Shown here: piece after piece, positions 3,815 to 60,401 of the stretch | Layout: every line of letters starts with the position of its first letter | Position numbering within the stretch: the first letter of the stretch is position 1 | Assembly: GCA_036785375.1 (NCBI GenBank) | Contig: JAWMAR010000167.1 | Location: forward strand, 4,712,001 to 4,776,000 | Reading direction: 5' to 3' | Origin: Leucoraja ocellata | Taxonomy: Eukaryota | Length of the DNA: 64,000 nt | Translations under genes and position numbers: made by a program | Notes under the pieces: model-generated | What the model was told of the DNA's origin: nothing | Databases searched by the model: none | Seen by the model: the letters and a program-made list of their open reading frames with translations, nothing else

Positions 3815-4065
3815 AACTCAGCAGGTTAGGCAGCATTCCTGGAGAAAATGGGTAGATCATGTTTCGGGTTGAGACCCTTCTTCAGACTTCCTTAGTTCAA
3901 ACAATGTAGACAACACAATATCATGGACACCATAAAAAGGGGCACTGGGTGAAAAGGGGACAAGTGAATTGCTGCTCCACTTGGAAGGAGCTTTTAAGGA
4001 CCTAGAGAGTGGCAGGAGCCAAATAGTAAGTATTTCATCTTTTGTGAGGCATGAAGGGGATTTGG
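3815..4065 (-). mobile_element. Penelope-like fragment: hammerhead-type short repeat joined to element body
   Basis: Similar to 57050-57300 (shared ccttcttcagactt...gaaaaggggacaagtgaattgctgctccacttg). Hammerhead-like core on the minus strand at 3858-3885. Confidence 0.6.
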
Positions 4066-5395
4066 ATGAAGCATCTTGATTGCGTGAACCAGTTGGGCCG
4101 AAGGGCCCGTATCCGTGATGTACGTCTCTGTCATTAATATCATTTGGGATCAGGTACTAATCTATGTGCCGCCCCGCTATTTACCATGATAACTTGAAGA
4201 AAAGATCGTTAATAGGTTATTCCTTACCTTTCAGATATTAATCGTACATATTCTTTTGTTCAGTAATAGTTCACTAAAAAACTAAATTACGATGCCACAG
4301 ATACCATTTGTTAAAAATTGCAGCAAATCCCAATTACTTTGAGACAAAGCTGCATGAAATTATGGAATGTTGGATCTAACAATGAATCTGCCTGAACTAC
4401 TGAGGAGATGACCAAAGTAGTCCACTTTGTGTGGATAAAAGAAAAAATGATTTTCTAGGCAAACGAATCCAAAAGAGAAACCACTGATTGAAGTTTAAAC
4501 TCATAAAATTGTTGTCCCGGTTAGGAAACTGTATGACCAGAAAGTGTCGGGTAGTAAAGATAACAAATACACAAGCCATATTAAATTGCTGCTACTGTTG
4601 TCTAAATTAATAACTTGGAAGGTGGGACTGAAAGTCTTATATAAGAATATGCCAATGAAAGTAAGACATGCTAAAATAGGAAACACTTTACAGATTAGCA
4701 AAAATAATAAAAAGAGAAGGTCCAAACAGAAGTTGGGACACGCATAAATAATTAAAATAGCACGGACATACAGAACATTATCAAAAAGGCCCATGCAATG
4801 CTGTAATTATCACATGATCAGATTACAGGGTGACAAAAGGCAAGGTCCTGCTTATCTTGGAGTTCCGGAGTCATTCTGAGCAATACACCTTAGAAAGGAA
4901 ATATGGAATGGAATACTTTATTGTCACATGTGAAATTCTTTGCTTGCATACCCAAGGTATGCAAATACCAGCTTTAGAGTAGGTGCAGTGTAAATATAAC
5001 CTAATTCAACAGACTCCAAGCTTAAATTACAAGGCGACAAAAAAAGGGCTGAAGTCTGTAATGTAGAAGGTGAAGGAACATTTTAATAGCAACTTGGTTG
5101 TATTGTAGACAAAGATAAACTATTTCTGCTGGTTAGAGTGTCCAGGACTAAGGGTGGATTAAGTTGAAGTTTAATTTTTACAAACAGTAATTGATGCACG
5201 GTTAAAAGTTAACTTTATGTCCGAGATTGATAGATTCTTGACCAACATTAAAAGATGTGGGGAAAAGGCAGGAATATAGAGTTATATCTGCCTTAATCTC
5301 CCTGATTGGTAGGTCAGGCATACGGGGTCAAATGGCCCACCTGATAATATCTTCCTGTGTTTTATGCAGTTCAAAATATTACTAGCTACATTTAG

Positions 5396-6008
5396 CAGGA
5401 CTCGAAATTATTGGTTGCCCGGGTGCCAATGGCCACCTAAAGTCCCGCCGGGCAACCTAAAAGCCGTTCCATTTTGCCCGGCTTGGCAAGCACCCGGGAC
5501 ACCTGCCATTCAACTCTGAACGGGCCCCCCTCTCTATCTCTCTCTGTCACTCTCCGTCTCCGCTCGCCATCCGTGTCCGGGCCTCCGGGCTCCGCTCTAT
5601 GATTTTTGGCTGGGTCTCGGGTCTCCGCTCTACAGCCGCTCCTTATCCGCTGGCACAGCCGGCCGCCTTGCTCATCCTCCCCCTGCACCACGGCCAGCAC
5701 AACATTGGCCGCCCTGCCCATGCGCACTGCCACGGCAACTGGTCGGCGCCGGGCACTTTCTCCCTCCCTTTGCATTGTGGGATATCTGGCTGCCTCGCCG
5801 CAACCGCTGAAAAAACAACGCAGAATCACTCCCTGGAGCTGGAGTAACTCCCTGGAGTAACTCTTGCTTCAGAAGTTAATTTCTTAAGCAGCAAGATGAA
5901 ACAGGAAGTCGGGCTGATTTTAGTATTTTACAAAACAAATCCGTACATCCGTATTCTGATCGCATTTCTGTACAAAATACGGAAAATCCGTACTACTTGG
6001 CAGCTCTG
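5396..6008. mobile_element. GC-rich non-autonomous DNA transposon sequence with two different hAT-style ends
   Basis: Left end CAGGACTCGAAATT; right end reads CAGAGCTGCCAAGT on the minus strand, with repeated atccgta subterminal motifs. CpG-rich interior in an AT-rich intron; no matching TSD. Confidence 0.45.
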
Positions 6009-7296
6009 CTAATTAATCAATTGCTTGACTTGAAACTGGATGCAATTTAGATGGCTTAGCCTAAAATGTTTCCAATGGATGTGAATGAAATGCCTCGATC
6101 AACTGGTAACAAGCTGACCGAGACTTACGTGCTTGAACAAGTTATAGAAATGCAACAAAACCACCAAAATCATTAAATGGTTGAACCTTGTAGGTGTGGC
6201 ATGAGGTCAATGCGCATATGGTAAAAATACACACCAGAAAAGAAACTTGAAGCTCGGAGGCTAAATACAGGGAGTCACAAGTTATATCATCTTGCTGATT
6301 TCTTCTTGGAAAAGTGCTTGGACAAAAATCTGCAGACCAACGATTAATACAATAGAGTAGTTTAACTATGTACCATTCCTTTTGCAAAGTGACATTTCAT
6401 GGCAACCTTCGCTTAAATCCAAAATACAGTTCAAAGGCACAAATGTTAGTAGTCTTATTAAAAGTAAGGATTTTGGGAAGGAAAAAAAAAACAGCTGTAT
6501 AAATATCACATCACTAATGGAGTAGCAGTGAGAAGAAATTTGCTGATCGAAATAAGAAACCAGTGCTGCACTCAAATTAAATAGAGGCAAGAATTTTGAT
6601 GGGGACAATCTTTCACTTAACGGGCTGTCTGGCAATCATTGTATGCCATGCATTAAATATTTTGTATGGTTAAAATTACAAGCACTGTACATCCTATATT
6701 GTCAGTGCTTCAAAAACTTCAAGTAAGAACCAAGTCAGATAAGAAGTTAGTAACTTCCAAAACATGCAGTTTGCTACCATTTCAAGTCAGGGAATAATTA
6801 AAATGTTCTCTTTCTCTCAAGAAACCTTTTGAGATGAGGACAAATATATTGTATTCATCGCTTCAATCTATAGCTGCACCCCTTTTCATATTTTGTGTTT
6901 CATTATTATTTTAAAAGAGCATTAACAATGCAAAATGAAGCACTTTCATATTTTGTATGAACGTCTCAGAAATCAGATTCACGATGTATATCCGTGTGTT
7001 TAACTCCACCTTAGAAAAACATTCATTTCAAAACCTCACCGTTCTTCTGCAAAACGAGGAAAGCATCAAAAATCTAAAACTACCATTACATGTCACAAAA
7101 TAAATGATTAAATAGGCATGTTATGCAGAGTTCTCAATATTAAAATCAAACTTCAATTTCATATAAATACTCATGATTGAAATATCAGGATTTTTCTGAA
7201 TTGCAAGTTGTACCAAGTTCAGTAAAAGTAACCAAAATTGTGAATTAACCATTGTGACTGAAATGTCAAAAACCATAAGGCTCACCAAATGCTGAC

Positions 7297-7358
7297 CTGC
7301 ACTTGGAGCAAGGCTGTTCACCACTTCTATTCTGTCGAAATAGATCATGACCCCACCA
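7297..7358 (-). CDS. ERLIN1: ERLIN1 coding exon 4 (62 bp)
   Basis: ctacag|...|gtcagc; (S)GGVMIYFDRIEVVNSLAPSA. Confidence 0.96.
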
Positions 7359-8274
7359 CTGTAGAAGGTAAAAGTAAATTGTTTAGTAATACAATATATA
7401 ACAGACATAAAAATAACTCAGCTATTAAAAGTACTTCGATTATGTACTAGTTGAACAAAAGCTAGAACACCTTTATGAAAGATGCAACAAAATAAAGAAC
7501 AACGGGGCATTTCCTACCATCTAATCCAGTTTTACCCAGTTGCTAAATCATCTACAGACAAGGATTTGTGTACATGGATGGTTATACTAGAAAATAACCA
7601 CATAAACTGTTTAAAAAAAAAAAACACTCCACGAGTTAGGCAGCATATGTGAAAAGAGAAACAGAATACACTCTTTCATCAGAACTGGGAAGAGAGAAAA
7701 TGACTTAATTTTAAATTGCAGAGGTGGGAGTGAGATAACTAGACCAAAAGGAATATCTGTGAAAGGGTAAAACTAGGATTGCCATCCCCACTCTCTCTTC
7801 AGTAGGGCCCAACCATCTCTCCCACCCACGCCTCGATAACTTTGCTTCTCCAGTTCTGACAAAGTGTCTCAAACATGAAAAACTGTTTATCATTCCACAG
7901 ATTCTATCTATCCCTCAGAGTGTTTCCAGTATTTTGTTTTTACTATTACGCAATTCACAAATGTATCCAGTTCTCACGCAAAAGGCAAAGCGGCACAGCC
8001 CAATGAGAAGCTCAGCGATGCATACTTTTAAAATATATAATTGCATGCCTTGGTTGGTATGTGCACGTTTTATTTTAATATAACAAGAAAATTCTTACAA
8101 CTTCAGTCAAACGCAAATGGGAAATATTAACAAGATTATCAAGTAATATAACTAATTAAAAAGTTTGCTGAAACAATATAACTACATTTAAGTTGTTTCT
8201 TTCCCATAACTTTCTAAAAAGAAATGGTATTGTCATAATAGGGATTAAACAACATAAAGCAAATGTTCACACAC

Positions 8275-8321
8275 CTTGTTCCGCAGGGAACATTTTTCAC
8301 TTCATCTGTTTGTAAAGTTGT
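8275..8321 (-). CDS. ERLIN1: ERLIN1 coding exon 3 (47 bp)
   Basis: ttacag|...|gtgtgt; TTLQTDEVKNVPCGT(S). Confidence 0.96.
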
Positions 8322-9785
8322 CTGTAACAGAGAAGTTAAAGTGTGTTTGTGAAATGAAATAAAACGTAAGCATGGTAAAGGCAAGATTATATACAGCAAT
8401 GAGGGCAAAACATTGTATTTGTACTATACATCCCTCTATGGATTCAATCACCAATACCTGCCCTTTGTTCCCGATGTATTTGTTTTTAATAAGCATTAGA
8501 GTTTCAATAGAATCAAGAGATTGTTTTTCATTTGTCCAAAGAGCATGGATTAAGTGCACTCGGGTATAAATTAGATCAAATATCCTACTTTCCCCCTCTT
8601 CCCATCCCTATAACTAAAATGTAACCTTCCTGGATAAAATAGCAGCTTTCACTCATCTCTGAAGGCAGATTTTAATTTAAACAACTGCACTAAATAACTA
8701 GTGTGAACAGAATTAATTAATAAAATACAATCTCAAAAGTCAGATTCAAATTTCATTCAAATTAAATTCCACCATTCTTAAAAATGCATATCACTGAAGT
8801 ATTTTTTAAATGTCATATTCAAGATTTCTTCATCTGGCTGTGTGTTCGGATATTGTGGCCAAGAGCACAAACAGGCTTATATATGAATACTTATCCCACT
8901 TGCTGAGCACATTCACCAGACCTGTGAATGACAGCCTCTTGGCTCAAGAGCTAACACTACACAAAAAGTCGGTGTCACAGCTGAGCAACGGCAGCACAAT
9001 TCTCATCCTCATCTTGACCATCGGCAATTAGCTTTAAGGCCTTCTTTTGCAATTCCTTTCTTTGCTGGTTCCTCACCTTCTAAAGACCTTGTCAACTATC
9101 CTTTCAACATACTCTTGACACTTTTTTTATTTCCCTCAGTGACCACGCTACTGATTGCAGTTAAGTGCTGCAAGCTATACCATGGAGCATTCTTGAAGTA
9201 TAAACATTTATTCTTGCATCCTTGGCAACAAAAACATGGAGCACTGAGAAACAATTAGTTTCAATACCTCTCTGGTACATTTAATCTCTGCCCTTGTACG
9301 TCATTTAGTGTGATAGCTCCTTTACTGATGCTTGCCATGTCATCAGTCTGTGGTGCATCACAATATTCTTACTGGTCTGTCCTTTTCAACTGACTTGTAT
9401 ATTGTGGCATTCAAGAATCCTGGTCCTGAATTAACACTGTGTAAATAGGTTACATTGAAGCTCAGAACAGGGGGGTGGGATGTTAGGTCACTCATGAAAT
9501 GTTCAAGATGTGGAAGAGCTTCCCAGTTTTTTTTAGAAACATAGAAAATTAGGTACAGAAGTAGGTTATTTGGCCCTTCGAGCCAGCACCGCCATTCAAC
9601 AAGATCATGGCTGATCATCTATGGGCTTCTAAACTAATTGATGTTCACCACTCAGGATAACTTAACAGAAAATTAAAACGCATTGCAGTTTCACATTCAA
9701 TACAAATATTTAAATTATATTTATTTCAAAACATTAATCTGTCATCTAGTCTTCATCTACCTGGAAGTGTAAAAAAAATGCTAAC

Positions 9786-9867: not shown

Positions 9868-11249
9868 CTAGAGAAAAGAAAAAATATTGAATATGTTGAC
9901 ATCTCTACAAAAACTAAGACATGACTGCTCAAAATGAGGGTAGCTGTAAAATAACAACTTCTGTATATATGATTTATGTACATAGCTTAGAACAGGTACT
10001 CAACTGAATTTCAATTAAGCATATCAGCCCTTAAGGTTGAAGGATCTTTGCTGACGTTTATGCTCTGCACAAGCATCCTTTGCCATCAATATATTTTAAT
10101 ACTATCATCTATATCAATCTCATGCAAAGCAATAAAATGGTACATTTTGTCCTTGGCTTGTGTTTGGAAGCTATTTTTTCAAAAGATATATATCAGTAAT
10201 TATAGTTGAAGTATTAGTGTCAGAGACTTTCTACAGCCTTAGCCAACCCACAACTAACTCCCACCACCCATAGTGCAGAGGTTGCCATCAATTATTCAAA
10301 GCTCATTCCAGAAAACAACATGACAAAGTGTTGTTCACATGCACAGGAAACGTTTAGTGGGATATGGACCAAATGTGGAGAAATGGAACGAGCCGAGATG
10401 AGGCATCTTGGTCGGCACGGACAGCTTGGGTTGAAGGGCCTGTTTCCATGTTGTGTGACTAGTTATGGCTTCACTTATACTTTGACGTCCACAATATTTA
10501 GCTAATAACATTTATACAATGAAAGGTTAAGAAAAGTTCATTTCCTTCTCCAAAACCCTCTATTAACTTGCTCATTTAGATTTTTTCCTCTCTAAATTGC
10601 TTTCATCTTTTTCTTCTGATACTTCTCTCCTTTTCACTCATTTCCTTTTCGCTTTCTCTCACTGCTATTATTTTGCTCTCAAACTCCATTTTCCGTTAGT
10701 GTATTCTTTCATTTCCCATTGTATTTTCATTTCCAAACTCACTTTTTCACTTCTATCAGTTTCCAGGAACAGATCTTGGTTTCTCAAACCATCCTCTATA
10801 AGGAACCTGATTCGTGAGCTGTAGCAGCGTTTAAATTTTGACTGTTGTCTGGGTGGGACAGCCCTGCAACCACCTCCCTGGATATGGTTGCATAGAACAC
10901 AAAAGTGCTGAAGTAACTCAGCAGGTTAGCGTTTCTGGAGAACATGAATAGGTGACGTTTCAGGTCAGGATCCTTCAGTCTGAATGTTGCTTGACCCACT
11001 GAGTTACTCCAGCACGTCATGTTCTCCCTTAATATGGTGGTGGGTTCAAGCCGCTACTTAGATGAACAAAAAACAAACCCAGAAATAAAATCTGTGCTAT
11101 GGCAACTCCTGTTAAAACAAAAATAATCATCATGAAATATCTGTGAATTTCATAATAATCCTTAATAGTTATTAAATATCAGGAGTTATGCACATATGAA
11201 ATTTTGCAACTTTATTTGAATAAAACCACCTTTTTCATTTATTTCACTT

Positions 11250-12940: not shown

Positions 12941-13396
12941 AAAGTCTATACTGATAGAAACAATATGTCAACAAATTGGAGTTTCCGTCAATTGGCCTCA
13001 GGAGTATGTCAAATTTTGTAATAGTGGAATAAAAACATTTGATTTGTCCAAAAATGTGTGCAATCCCTAAAAGCAAGCAATGTTGCAGTAGGAAGAGTGT
13101 ACAAGAACAATTAATTCGGTATAAAACAATATACAGACACTATATATTTTTTAAAGAGTAGTTTCACGCTACAAAATATCTGAGCATGTTATATTGCTGT
13201 TACAAATGGAACTTTTAAAAAAATGGTTATCATTGCAAGGCCATAAGTCCAATTACAAATTCCTAAGTCAATCAGAGGTTGCAGGTTCTCAGAAATATGC
13301 AACTGGTTGGAACTTTATTAATTCCTGCTCTGAGTTATGAGGAAGCAAAATAATGAGTTTTTTTGAAAAGAAAATTGGTTTCACAAGATTTACTAC

Positions 13397-13509
13397 CTGT
13401 AGTAAATGCCAAGGTGCCCCTCTTCAATCTTGTGTATGGAAGAGTAAAGGAAGAAAGACACGGCTGCAGTTATTGCGACCACAATTGCTCCAACATGAGT
13501 CATGGTCAT
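13397..13509 (-). CDS. ERLIN1: ERLIN1 first coding exon (113 coding bp; exon starts at 13519)
   Basis: ttgcag|gcaaggcagcATG...TACTACAG|gtagta; MTMTHVGAIVVAITAAVSFFLYSSIHKIEEGHLGIYYR, an N-terminal membrane anchor plus the erlin HKIEEGH motif. The MxMT start and adjacency to CHUK favour ERLIN1 over ERLIN2. Confidence 0.93.
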
Positions 13510-15454
13510 GCTGCCTTGCCTGCAAGAGTGGGATGCAAACAGCAGAGTAAATGTCAATATCAGATTAGAAAGACGGCTTTGAAAAACATTTTGACAACTA
13601 TAATTTATATTTATCAAATGTAAATGATCAGCATTTGCATAAAAGGTGAAACAATAGTACATCCTAACTAGTAAAGTCTTTTGAAACCTCAATTTCATAA
13701 TGTTGCGATCATTTATGCAGGATTTAACATTAGTGAAATCCGCATCTATATGAATGGAAATTACATGCACACACAACCTCGTTAACAAGATAAATTAAGT
13801 CTGAATTTTACACTCGATCATTCAGGAACATGCCATTAAAATTAAACATTCCCAGTTCCAACTAATGAACAAGTTTTGAACTTTCTTCAATCTTTGTTCA
13901 ACTGCAGCTTTTGCAGCATTGTTGAAATCACCCTACAAAAAGCCATTGGCAAGTAATATTTCCACATTGTCTTAACAGGCCCGATCAAGTTTCAGCAACC
14001 CAATGCCTGTGTTAGCAGGTAAATTACATGTAGCCTATTTTAAAACAAACTTCCTGGTTTCTCATGTTTCTTTAAACACAAAAGAAAATTACTCGCGGCC
14101 AAGCTTGTGGACGGTGTGGGACAATGATTCCCTTCCATTAAGAATCACTCACCATTTACAAAAATGCAAACCAGAGCACCACTGACAAATGGTTTTGGTT
14201 TCTTATATATCCTTAACCAACACGCTTATCTACTGAAAACCCTTGTAATAACAGTCAAAGTGCCAGACACATTTTGAACCGCCTGCCAGCAGAACAAGTA
14301 CATACTCAGCATCAAGACTAGTTTTTGATCATATTTAATAAAACTAAATTTCACACCAAACTAAACAAGTGTACATTTTACCATATAATGCTCCATCTGC
14401 AATCACCTTACCTGCTTGCTTAATGTGTTCAGATCCCCTTTCAGATTCATGCCTTGCTATCTACAGTTCACTTCCCCTTGGCTTTGTTCCTCTAGTGAAT
14501 CTGCATGGGTGTGCACTTCTAAAGTACTTATAAATTGAATGTGTCTGTCTCGCCCATCCGAAAATAAATACTATGACCCAATTAATGTGCACATCTTCCC
14601 CTTGAAGTAATAATTCTAAAGTAAATAAATACTTACAGATTACACTCAGATATTTTAGGTTATAAACTTTAATGTGGAATCAGTCCTGTGTCTTGCAGCA
14701 GCAATTCATAACCTTTGTCCTGTATTGCTTGTTGGGGGTTGTCACAAGTGGGTTTTCATTCGTAAGTTAACATTCAAATCTGAATAGAATATGAGGAAAA
14801 CATTATAAGCGAAATTAAAACGACTCGACCTCCATCTGACGTGATCATTTGTAAGAGGATATGGTCTGTAAAATATTGTTGAGAAACTATTCAAATAAAC
14901 CCGTACCTCTATCAATTACAGGATGAAATAAATGGACACATCCATTTTAATCAAATAGTGAAGCATTAAAGCACAATAACAGAAGAAAATAGAAGTCATC
15001 AGGACCCTCAAGCCAGCTCCACCATTTAATATGATCATAGCCAATTTATTCTGGACTCAATTCCTCTTTCATGCCATTTCTCTATATCCCTCTACTCCTC
15101 CATCACCACCACTATAAGTATTTCTAATGATTTAGCTTCCGCCACCAGCCAGAGCAGTGAATTCCAGAAATGCATCACCCTCTGCGAAAACGATCAGTTT
15201 TAAACGTGACTACGTACCGCTACCTTGTAGTTATGTCCCCTTGTATGAGACTCTCTCACAACATCTCAAGAGTCAAGTCAAGATAGTTTATGGTCATGTG
15301 TCCCAGATAGGACAATGAAATTCGTGCTTGCTGCAGCACAACAGAATATTGTTCTATTGTTCTGAATATTATCTATTCCGTGTGGTCCCTTTGGTGTCTT
15401 ATTTATTTGGGCAAGGTCACTTCTCATTCTGCTAAACTCCAAGGATTCAAATGT

Positions 15455-45045: not shown

Positions 45046-45534
45046 TTGAGAACTCGACGAGACATGGGGCATTTATTGTGCTGTACAAGATCATATTCCG
45101 TAATTATAAACTGTAGTCGAATAAAATTAACTTTCTGATCTTTCTTGGTGACAAACCCAAGTTTCTCAGCATACCAAAGACTATTGAGCAAAATAAAAAA
45201 TCAAATGCTGAAGGAACTCAATGAGTCTGACAGAATCCCTGGTGGGAACGTACAGGTGATGTTTCAAGTCAGGACACTTCCTAACCTGACGAATCAGTCT
45301 GAAGAAGAATCCCAAACAGAAAGTTCACTCCATTCCCTCCACAGATGCAGCCTGACCTGCTGAGTTCCTTCAGCAATTTTTGTTGTTGCACAATGTTCCA
45401 GCATCTGCAGTTTCTTGTATCATCAATGACTCTTTCTTAGCAGTGTCAACTATTACCTGTATGGTACTAACATTTATTTAGTACTAAAATACAATTTCAC
45501 TGTCAAACACCATTAAAACCTTTAACTTATTTAC

Positions 45535-56879: not shown

Positions 56880-57960
56880 TAGTCGATCTACTGGTGTGTA
56901 TCATTGGAACAGTGTAAGAGGCCAAGAGTAGTCATCAGAGTGGGGGTAGGATGGAAAATTAAAACCACAGGAGACTGGAAGCAGGTCACTTGAGTACCAG
57001 GAGTTTCTGCCAAGTAGTTCTTCAATCTGCATATAGCAAATACAGAAATTGCTGGAAATCAGCATGTCAGGCAGCATCTCTAGAGCATATAGACATGCAA
57101 GGTATTGGATTGGGATCCTTCTTCAGACTTCTTTAGTCCAAGCAATATAGAGACCATTTCAGGGCACTGAAACTGGGGCACGAAATGAAAAGGGGACAAG
57201 TGAATTGCTGCTCCACTTGTAGGGCTTTTAAGGTCTTAGAGCATTGTAGGAGGTAAACAGTAGGTATTTCATCTCTTGTGGATAGATGAAGGGGATTTGA
57301 CAGAGTTGAACGATTGAACTGGTATTTGTGAAGGGAATAGCTCTTCCAGAATGCTGGAAGAAGAGGTGAATTAGAGAGGAGGTGTCTAGTGGTGCCATCA
57401 CACAGTGGTGGTAATTATGAAGGATGATTTAGTGAATTTGGAGTCTGGCGTTGTGGAAGAACAGGAGAAGAGTGAAAGCACAAATGTAGGTAATTATTAA
57501 GAGCCGGTCCACTATAGTACAGCAAAAGCCCCTTTTAAGGCAAAAGAAAAACACCTCAGAAGTACTAGTGTGGAAGTGTCACGATAGGAATACAATGGAA
57601 CCAAGAAAACTGGCCAAACTTAGAAGGAACCCTTACAAGAGCCAAAATGGAAAGATGTATACCGTGTAGATTAGTGGTCTGTAGGTTTGTAATGAATATT
57701 GCTCACAAGACTATTTCACCAAGATTTCAAATAAAAGCCTGTCGGAAATCAGCAGTAGAAGTGATGATACATTTGAGTTCTATGTGGGAACAGGACACAC
57801 ATTTATTGCAATGTACTGAAAAAAGGAAGAAAGGAACTGGCTCAGTTCAGACAGAAAGAAGGATCTGTGCATGTATAGTTCAGATCTACATGCTCATAAC
57901 TATGACTGACTTGGTAGAAGTGAGTGGAATTAAGGGAAAATAAGTTCAATGCAAAAACAA
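56880..57960 (-). mobile_element. Decayed Penelope-like element (RT thumb to GIY-YIG region)
   Basis: Minus strand ~57625-57715 reads NSLVSNIHYKPTDH*STRYTSFHFGSCKGS, matching the PLE RT motif DIYYKPTD...L.Y.S.HP..CK; carries a copy of the hammerhead-type repeat at ~57050-57130. Confidence 0.65.
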
Positions 57961-58139
57961 ATTCAGCTGTAAGTTAATAAATTGATACGAGATAGTAGAA
58001 TTAGGCCATTTGGCCTGACATCCATACTAATCAACAATCCCGACACCCATACTAATCAAGAATCTATCTATCTCTGCCTTAAAAATATCCTTTGACTTGG
58101 CCTTCACTCTTTCAACTGGCAACCATACAATATTTGCTC

Positions 58140-58590
58140 CATAGTGTGATGAAGGGCCTCAAACCGAAACGTCACCCATTCCTTCTCTCCAGAGATGATG
58201 CCTGTCCCGCTGAGTTACTCCAGCATTCTGTGTCTATCTTCCATATTATCTTTCATTGTATTCACCCTATCGCAGACGTTCCCTTGTTTCTTCCACCACC
58301 ACATCCCTCTCTGAAGCGACCAGTCTGAAGAAGGGTCTCGACCCGAAACGTCACCGATTCCTTCTCTCCAGAGATGCTGGCTGTCCTGCTGAGTTACTCC
58401 ATCTTTTTGTGTCTATCTTCAGTTTAAACCAGCATCTGCAGTTCCTTCTGACACCTCTCTACAACTTATTCTGTATTTAACTTTTCCTAATTCTGATGAA
58501 AGGTTATCGACCAAAAATGTAATTGTCTCTCTCTGTCAGGTACACCCTAATCCAGCATTCTCCGTGATTTCAGATTTCCAGCATCTGAAG
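58140..58590 (+). ncRNA. Tandem hammerhead-type repeats (two clear units 179 nt apart plus a degenerate third)
   Basis: GTGATGA..GAAAC GTC at 58146-58173; CTGAAGA-AGGGTCTCGACCC-GAAAC-GTC at 58325-58352; CTGATGA remnant at 58493. Confidence 0.6.
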
Positions 58591-59236
58591 TTTACTTTGC
58601 AACCATTAAAGTACTGTGAAGTCAAAATGCAAAGTGATTTTTGTTATTCTGAGAATGTGAAAGGAATGATTCTATTTTCTTCGAAAAATATAATTATTGA
58701 TCGATCAAGTTTTACTTTGGGATCAGGTTCCAACATGGTGAACTCCTCATTGCTGAAGGAAGAGATTAGGTAACAGCCGTCAGATCCCTACACACCCTGG
58801 CCAGTTTCACTGAATATTCTTCATTCCACACAAATGTTTTTGGCCAACAGAAATAATTATGGTTAACTTTAATTGATTAAGAAATATACTGAGAGATGAA
58901 AAAAACGAATAAAGAAAAATGACAGACAATTCAAATACATTTAACCCCAAAAACTTTCTGAACGTGTTCAAATTCATATGCATTAAATGACATGTACTAT
59001 GATGATATATTTGATAAAATAAAATGTTTTGTGCAGTCTTCATACTTTAAAGAAATGTGCAGCAAGACATTCACAATAAAATATAGCAATTCTGCAGAAA
59101 CTCTATCTTGACATTCCCTTTATTTGTAATTCTGAATTTATTATATTGTCTTTCAAACATGTATTTTATCAGAGATTTCAATAAATTAAACATGTCATAT
59201 GACACTACACTAACCAATATTTATGGTATAACCAAC

Positions 59237-59372
59237 CTTCTGACTTAAAATCTGCTCCAGGAGCGTGAAGCATGCTAGTCGATTTGTGTTTGGATCTACA
59301 TTACCACCCCGTTGTTTTGGATCCCAAACCAACATCATTTGCAGCCATGTCTCCAATGGTTTTACCATTAAG
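59237..59372 (-). CDS. CHUK: CHUK exon 9 equivalent (136 bp)
   Basis: ttgcag|...|gttggt; LMVKPLETWLQMMLVWDPKQRGGNVDPNTNRLACFTLLEQILSQK, end of the kinase domain. Confidence 0.96.
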
Positions 59373-59429
59373 CTGCAAAACAAAACAAAACCATTCAAAA
59401 ATGAAATAGTCGCAGTGAACTCCCCATCA

Positions 59430-59645
59430 TGGTAAGGGGGGTGAGTGTATGGAACAAGCTGCCAGAGGAGTTAGTTGAGGCTGGGACGATCCCAACGTTT
59501 AAGAAACAGTTGGGCAGGTACATGGATAGGACATGTTTGGAGGGATATGGACCAAACGCTGGCAGGTGGGACTAGTGTAGCTGGGACATGTTGGCTGGTG
59601 TGGGCAAGTTGGGCCAAAGGGCTTGTTTCAACACTGTATCGCTAT
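59430..59645 (+). mobile_element. CR1-type LINE 3' end
   Basis: RGVSVWNKLPEELVEA remnant plus the 3' tail; similar ends at ~23950-24160, ~38290-38560 and ~40125-40320. Confidence 0.75.
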
Positions 59646-60401
59646 GTAATTATCACAATTTATGTCTGAAGAAAAGTCACAGAGGTGAAACGTTAACGGT
59701 TTCCCTTTCACAGATGCTGCCTGACTGCTCAGTGTATCAGCCTTTTAAAAAAATTTTTTTGTGACAATTACATCGTAATTATGTAAGTTATTATTTGACC
59801 AGACCCTGGAAAACATAAGATTCCATGTTGCCTGGTGACTAACATACATTTACTGGGGAAGATTCCAGCTGTTGGTCACTTCACAGAACTAAAAATTGAT
59901 CACAAAAGACAAAGTGCTGGAGGAACTCAGATGTTCAGGCAGCATCAGTGGAGGGAATGGAAGGTGATGTCATGGGTGGAGACCATTCTTCAGACAGTAT
60001 CTGGGGAGAGGACAGGCCAGAAATATCGTCTCTCCATTCCCTCACCAGAAGCTGCCTGACCCAATGAGTTTCTCCAGAACATTGTGTTTTGCTCAAGATT
60101 CCAGTATTTGCAGTGCACTTGGTCATATAGGCATTCCAGCGTCCATTTCTGCATCACTGCATTATATTTGGCTAGGATAAAATGTTTGGGTATTCCAGGT
60201 CCTTGTTCTCCCTCCCCCGTGATTGCATGAAGTCACCTGAATTCCTCTTTGCTCGTTTTACAACTGTCCACCCTGGGTTACATAATCCTGCATTTTACAA
60301 GACTGAAGTCATTGAGATTTTAAAAATGTCATGAGACAACCAAATTTCAGCGAAATTTAAGTAGTTAAAGATGCAAAATTCCTACAGGTAAAAATACTCA
60401 C

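Follow-up and report, generated by a model that had tools for sequence, protein, structure and literature searches.

Within a 64,000-nt stretch of the Leucoraja ocellata genome, which we refer to as the window, three hammerhead-ribozyme-like motifs follow one another between positions 58140 and 58590, the first two of them 179 nt apart. The locus raises the question of whether these motifs mark tandem units of a self-cleaving RNA that would release ~180-nt monomers or circles, as a preliminary description made from the letters alone suggested, or whether their arrangement has another origin. The features on which the argument turns are listed here, with PLE standing for Penelope-like element.

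58143..58241, forward strand: unit 1, a solo PLE end that begins at the 5' edge of the hammerhead and finishes at the short 3' end, identical to unit 2 at 87 of 99 positions
58242..58321, forward strand: spacer, of which 58262-58314 weakly matches an older PLE family in its 3' UTR
58306..58312, forward strand: CCTCTCT, likely the left copy of a 7-nt target-site duplication (TSD) of unit 2, with the right copy at 58454-58460
58322..58420, forward strand: body of unit 2, the pLTR of an older subfamily within the young PLE family (repeat profile, endonuclease linkage)
58323..58354, forward strand: intact minimal type I hammerhead motif of unit 2, with a predicted cut site (direct sequence reading, descriptor)
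58421..58454, forward strand: 34-nt PLE 'tail' between two preferred 3' ends (3'-end modes; PMC11167929, PMC8557442)
58455..58594, forward strand: unit 3, the remaining 3' UTR and decayed hammerhead pLTR of the older PLE family (profile positions 117-282, E 1.5e-10)

The hammerhead motif of unit 2

The motif at 58325-58352 proved to be as first described: the core CTGAAGA (58325-58331) is followed by an extra A (58332), stem II GGGT(CTCG)ACCC (58333-58344), GAAA (58345-58348) and C-G-T-C (58349-58352), with the ACGT palindrome and the GTC triplet in place and a predicted cut after 58352. Stem I consists of two base pairs, 58323-58324 with 58353-58354. Unit 2 has the whole CUGANGA/GAAA/NUH core, which units 1 and 3 do not, and it also shows the unpaired nucleotide that separates 9 from 10.1, the G10.1-C11.1 pair and the palindromic 15.2-16.2. 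It is the only match in the window under a strict hammerhead descriptor. Across 600 kb of the genome, the same descriptor found 16 matches, while 10 dinucleotide shuffles yielded none at all, so that the motif exceeds what chance would give; the extra A is present in 14 of these 16 and a 2-bp stem I in 13, compared with a helix I of 4 bp in the older PLE family. The extra A and the short stem I, raised at the outset as caveats, are real. The extra A is a published trait of PLE hammerheads, and so may be the short stem I, which has 2 bp in the D. virilis variant as well (PMC4209133). An Rfam scan of the window gave no hammerhead match at E<=10. Judged by its sequence, unit 2 carries a genuine hammerhead motif of the minimal type I.

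The repeat is the pLTR of a Penelope-like element

We found that the repeat lies ~100-180 nt after a match to the endonuclease in all 30 loci chosen by protein, where it follows the GIY-YIG stop on the same strand, and at 133 of 156 endonuclease ends; Pfam GIY-YIG scored above its cutoff in both of the upstream frames tested. Among 20 young loci, six contain a frame of 1100 codons or more that runs without a stop up to the endonuclease C-terminus, and nine have a complete direct pLTR upstream, several of them with an inverted pLTR as well. The hammerhead-to-hammerhead distance in one such copy (L227) is 4000 nt, giving an element unit of 4.0 kb. In this family the ORF begins ~137 nt past the cut site, at a point ~35 nt beyond the tail. 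The 1239-aa protein is a single ORF with the reverse transcriptase (RT) ahead of the GIY-YIG domain, and carries DKG, YIDD and a CX4CxxC linker; its RVT_1 match (E 3.5e-6) falls below the Pfam cutoff, and a PDB sequence search with the RT-endonuclease region returned 0 matches. The linkage to GIY-YIG and the full-length copies with pLTRs together identify the repeat, on sequence grounds, as the pLTR of an endonuclease-bearing PLE, as the preliminary description had read it. The linker, CNRKRCNTC in L227, conforms to the CX2-5CxxC definition that marks Neptune and is common to Nematis (PMC8557442), and it is by this motif that we assign the element to the Neptune type; the direct and inverted pLTRs and the 34-nt tail likewise agree with the definition of Neptune EN+ PLEs. 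A Neptune-type PLE with a minimal hammerhead is itself a known kind of element.

The full-length copies L221-L239 are 95-99% alike and their pLTRs 98-100% identical, which indicates that the family was recently active. In the young subfamily the triplet is GUU and loop 2 reads UUCG. The ORF of young copies has a long proline-rich N-terminal stretch.

Abundance and arrangement of copies

The repeat profile gave 19 matches in the window and 279 in 600 kb, against 0 in a reversed control. In a larger sample we counted 452 matches in 999,400 bases (~450 per Mb), which extrapolates to ~1.5 million in the 3.44-Gb assembly; many of these loci are near-identical pairs, and the sample is not strictly random, being made up of 100 pieces of 10 kb each, taken at round coordinates within large contigs. 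Intact hammerhead motifs extrapolate to roughly 90,000 (16 per 600 kb). Inverted pairs are head-to-head in 57 cases versus tail-to-tail in 4, which agrees with published accounts of PLEs (PMC8557442, PMC3846280). The window itself contains three inverted pLTR pairs in head-to-head orientation (10897-11022, 45203-45417 and 59864-60116), each the usual PLE 5' inversion.

Away from the repeat, a reverse-strand frame at window positions 13393-13510, ending MTMTHVG...HKIEEGHLGIYYR, resembles what we take to be the first exon of erlin1; a Pfam search of this frame found nothing. Just upstream of unit 1, 58035-58115 is a fragment of another very abundant repeat (deep contig cover), presumably an inverted CR1-type LINE end, which it resembles.

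Three nested insertions probably account for the locus

Unit 1 does lie exactly 179 nt upstream of unit 2 with the C3>G change (58146), and it has in addition two stem II mismatches that the first reading missed; with these changes its hammerhead is broken, as is its core in all eight paralogous segments compared. The degenerate third unit is also present: its core (58493-58499) lies 168 nt downstream of that of unit 2, has lost G12 and C15.2, and belongs to the older family.

The description of these motifs as tandem units was not confirmed. Units 1 and 2 share 99 nt only, the 79 nt upstream of each match at 20 of 79 positions, and no TRF array was found. A spacing of 170-190 nt is seen in 2 of 61 same-strand neighbouring copies (within 600 nt). 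The spacer aligns at positions 70-124 of an older-family profile built from 22 copies, with a weak score of 1.6 bits that exceeds all of 300 shuffles (best -1.0); it occupies profile positions adjacent to those of the sequence after unit 2, and the two overlap by the CCTCTCT that flanks unit 2 (profile 117-124), a duplication which at 7 nt is within chance length and too short for significance alone. A pairwise test of the spacer, which is pyrimidine-rich, against seven older-family UTR copies gave no significant z, a comparison with young-family UTRs gave no match better than E 0.17, and unit 1 showed no clear TSD. Nested insertions explain the arrangement best, and the spacing is most likely accidental and no unit of an RNA circle.

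We consider it very probable that the locus comprises three hammerhead-bearing ends of Neptune-type PLEs that arose by three separate, nested insertions. An old truncated PLE end, unit 3 with its 3' UTR, would have come first; a 133-nt solo end, unit 2, would then have inserted into that UTR, and a further solo end, unit 1, 83 nt further upstream. The hammerhead at this locus is probably inert.

It is highly improbable, by comparison, that the locus is the dimer of a non-LTR retrozyme whose transcript is cut at both hammerheads and yields a monomer or circle of 179 nt. In favour of such a dimer, two of the motifs lie 179 nt apart on the same strand, an origin of retrozymes from PLE ends has been suggested (10.64898/2026.07.22.740005), and a true tandem of three 130-nt units exists elsewhere in the genome. 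However, the 179-nt piece is no unit of the family, whose element unit is 4.0 kb; only 99 nt of it repeat, and 2 of the 61 neighbour spacings given above come near its length. The upstream hammerhead is broken in stem II and carries the C3>G change that abolished the activity of the anole PLE hammerhead (PMC11167929), the hammerhead of unit 2 is broken in paralogues too, and pairing in cis of the two ACGT motifs is predicted at ~0.001. Eight of nine Xenopus dimers were not cleaved (10.64898/2026.07.22.740005). The locus has no two consecutive tandem units with complete hammerheads, and no recurrence of the monomer at independent loci was found: a genome search placed the spacer in four paralogous segments, all copies of one duplicated segment, a count that is a lower bound since the search skips common words.

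The tandem elsewhere, at L241:8967-9356 (G000:C61), is a true head-to-tail array of three 130-nt pLTR units of the young subfamily, each running from the hammerhead edge to the tail end. Its two downstream units keep G12 but carry C11.1>T, and it is the closest thing to a retrozyme seed in the 1 Mb examined.

Paralogous segments and the order of events

The segment at window positions 57500-59700 is duplicated in at least nine places with 5-10% divergence. Four of nine paralogous segments carry unit 1, the spacer and unit 2, and the other five carry unit 1 with the tail only; the split between carriers and non-carriers corresponds to one edge of the paralogue tree, which has 89% support and was built without an outgroup. 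The short paralogues are of unit-1 type at every diagnostic site, which confines any recombination to the final ~16 of the 99 nt. Under the nested-insertion reading, these short paralogues would have arisen by recombination between units 1 and 2, with loss of 179 nt in one lineage.

The same placement also fits a gain at the short 3' end, which is what a partial tandem or self-insertion would produce: a second truncated PLE copy, together with 80 nt of other sequence, would have joined unit 1 at its short 3' end, and the one-unit paralogues would be ancestral. On this account too the locus would be a dead PLE structure and no retrozyme. In its favour, the boundary falls at the short 3' end that copies prefer. 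It is by partial tandems that pLTRs are defined (PMC8557442), and the enzyme of the anole PLE makes nicks in the pLTR of its own element (PMC11167929). A duplication of 27 nt is shared with two short paralogues, a pattern that would speak for gain. Against this, the spacer is not a young-family UTR and aligns in register with the old one, and the largest distance among the segments (0.084-0.095) separates the two lineages that carry the piece, which fits an ancestral 179-nt piece. We therefore regard self-insertion as unlikely, and retain nested insertion as the preferred account.

Some further differences among the segments were observed. An additional insertion with (AATTG)n at its end occurs in two paralogues, a ~370-nt piece of the window copy is lacking in other copies, and a 25-nt tandem duplication at window 58017-58064 is found in six of nine paralogues.

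The ends of solo copies

The 3' ends of 275 copies are bimodal, with 82 at profile positions 100-109 and 93 at 130-139, and the two preferred ends, 34 nt apart, bracket the tail. At the other end, 150 copies anchored inside the motif comprise 27 that keep the UTR, 52 that abut an inverted copy and 71 that abut host DNA, the host junction lying within a few bases of the core; 123 of the 150 thus start at the ribozyme 5' edge, without UTR, and not at the cut site. Retention of the consensus drops from 84% at -1 to background by -5. No pile-up of copy starts was seen at the cut site (20 of 452 matches over 9 positions), which suggests that the template was uncut there. Duplications of at least 9 nt flank 14 of 69 solo copies, after two tandem copies were dropped, versus 3 of 300 controls, an excess which indicates that solo copies are direct insertions. 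Capture of a host exon as the cause of the sharp 5' edge was ruled out where the TSD abuts the edge.

These ends suggest how the short copies may form. By analogy with the anole PLE (PMC11167929), the element protein would nick DNA and start reverse transcription at one of two sites within the pLTR; copying would then cross the uncut hammerhead and usually stop at its 5' edge, leaving 100-135-nt dead copies. While the element is active, processing of the 4-kb RNA would fall to the hammerhead, whose cutting would be slow and would need a dimer or the help of protein.

As to the stop itself, the TCAGT at the hammerhead 5' edge fits an initiator, and the YAG after a pyrimidine tract fits a splice acceptor. 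Candidates for the 5'-edge stop are a TCAGT initiator, a splice acceptor as in D. virilis, or a structural stop. In the D. virilis PLE an intron ends at helix I (PMC4209133), and its promoter has also been studied (PMC2377424). One possible, still tentative, account is that SINE-like solo ends are mass-produced without a separate non-autonomous element: transcription would start from the TCAGT initiator at the first base of stem I, priming would occur internally 100-135 nt downstream on uncut RNA, and copying would run to the capped 5' end. If true, this would explain the roughly one million short copies that start at the 5' edge, the absence of a pile-up at the cut site, and the occasional 130-nt arrays (L241) as retrozyme seeds.

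Conservation and predicted folding of the hammerhead

An excess of core conservation over the rest of the repeat, which the preliminary description associated with a working ribozyme, is suggested between families and was not found among inserted copies. After insertion, core mismatches (30 of 865) are no rarer than those outside (187 of 4284; p=0.27), so that cores decay like their flanks; this comparison set aside 4 of 91 rows because of deletion or misalignment, and it used neither the young L220-L239 copies nor CpG sites nor columns that vary between subfamilies. Of 87 older copies linked to an endonuclease, 36 have the motif intact. Between the older family and the two young subfamilies, in contrast, the core is kept at 12 of 13 positions versus 35-37 of 55 others; N7 and loop 2 vary, stem II stays, and one stem I pair changes from U-A to G-C. 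As only three family majorities were compared, this conservation is no more than suggestive of a working hammerhead. Descent of the repeat from a self-cleaving RNA is plausible.

In folding predictions a competing hairpin buries the hammerhead core: the hammerhead fold is at -3.9 versus a minimum of -33.6 kcal/mol, and the predicted probability of stem II is 0.04 in unit 2 and 0.001 in a young copy. Minimal PLE hammerheads cleave weakly and as dimers only (PMC4209133); the anole PLE hammerhead cleaves with protein present and is dispensable for insertion in vitro (PMC11167929).

The motif might then be no working ribozyme even in the active element, and be kept as a promoter, splice acceptor or protein-binding sequence. 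The distance of the hammerhead fold from the predicted minimum, the lack of a pile-up of copy starts at the cut site and the presumed fit of the 5' edge to initiator and acceptor sequences point in this direction. The kept core with its free N7, the lasting stem II and the U-A to G-C change, all seen among the three majorities, argue against it, as does cleavage of the related anole motif with protein (PMC11167929). We think this the less probable case, while giving it appreciable weight; it concerns the family and is compatible with nested insertion at the locus.

Circles were also sought in sequencing contigs over 57900-58700. A 128-nt go-back joint found there occurs in a deep run not labelled as RNA as well, and so is no evidence.

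Comparison with known systems

We read the locus as an unremarkable accumulation of dead transposon ends, one that illustrates how apparent ribozyme 'dimers' can arise by nesting. Through its full-length young copies and its short insertions, about a million in number, the family documents on a large scale the points at which PLE reverse transcription begins and ends, and its sharp 5' edge offers a simple test of the role of the PLE hammerhead. A literature search of main texts found no study of the hammerhead of this family in cartilaginous fish.

Metazoan PLE hammerheads (PMC4209133) share with the present one the core, the unpaired nucleotide between 9 and 10.1, G10.1-C11.1 and the palindromic 15.2-16.2, as well as the position in the pLTR, copies that are mostly single and dispersed, and opposite-strand pairs. 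Helix II has 4 bp here and 7-8 in S. mansoni, and helix I has 2 bp here, 4-5 in S. mansoni and 2 in D. virilis; the ~90,000 intact motifs extrapolated here compare with 4,000-9,000 in coelacanth and Xenopus (values for the other species from PMC4209133). Non-LTR retrozymes (PMC7229834, 10.64898/2026.07.22.740005) are alike in that a short repeat, akin to the ends of PLEs, bears type I hammerheads. Unlike them, the skate repeat lacks head-to-tail monomers each with a complete hammerhead, its hammerhead is minimal and not canonical, and no unit length is shared.

Neptune EN+ PLEs (PMC8557442) have the same ORF of RT and C-terminal GIY-YIG with DKG and a CX2-5CxxC linker, and the same 5' truncation, partial tandems, inverted pLTRs and 30-40-bp tail; the present family differs in its very many 100-135-nt solo ends with a sharp 5' start, and its clade is assigned from the linker motif. 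With the Anolis Poseidon PLE (PMC11167929) it shares two preferred 3' ends that bracket the tail, a hammerhead in the pLTR and the absence of ends at the cut site, whereas the start codon lies outside the ribozyme here and inside it there, and the linker here is of Neptune type.
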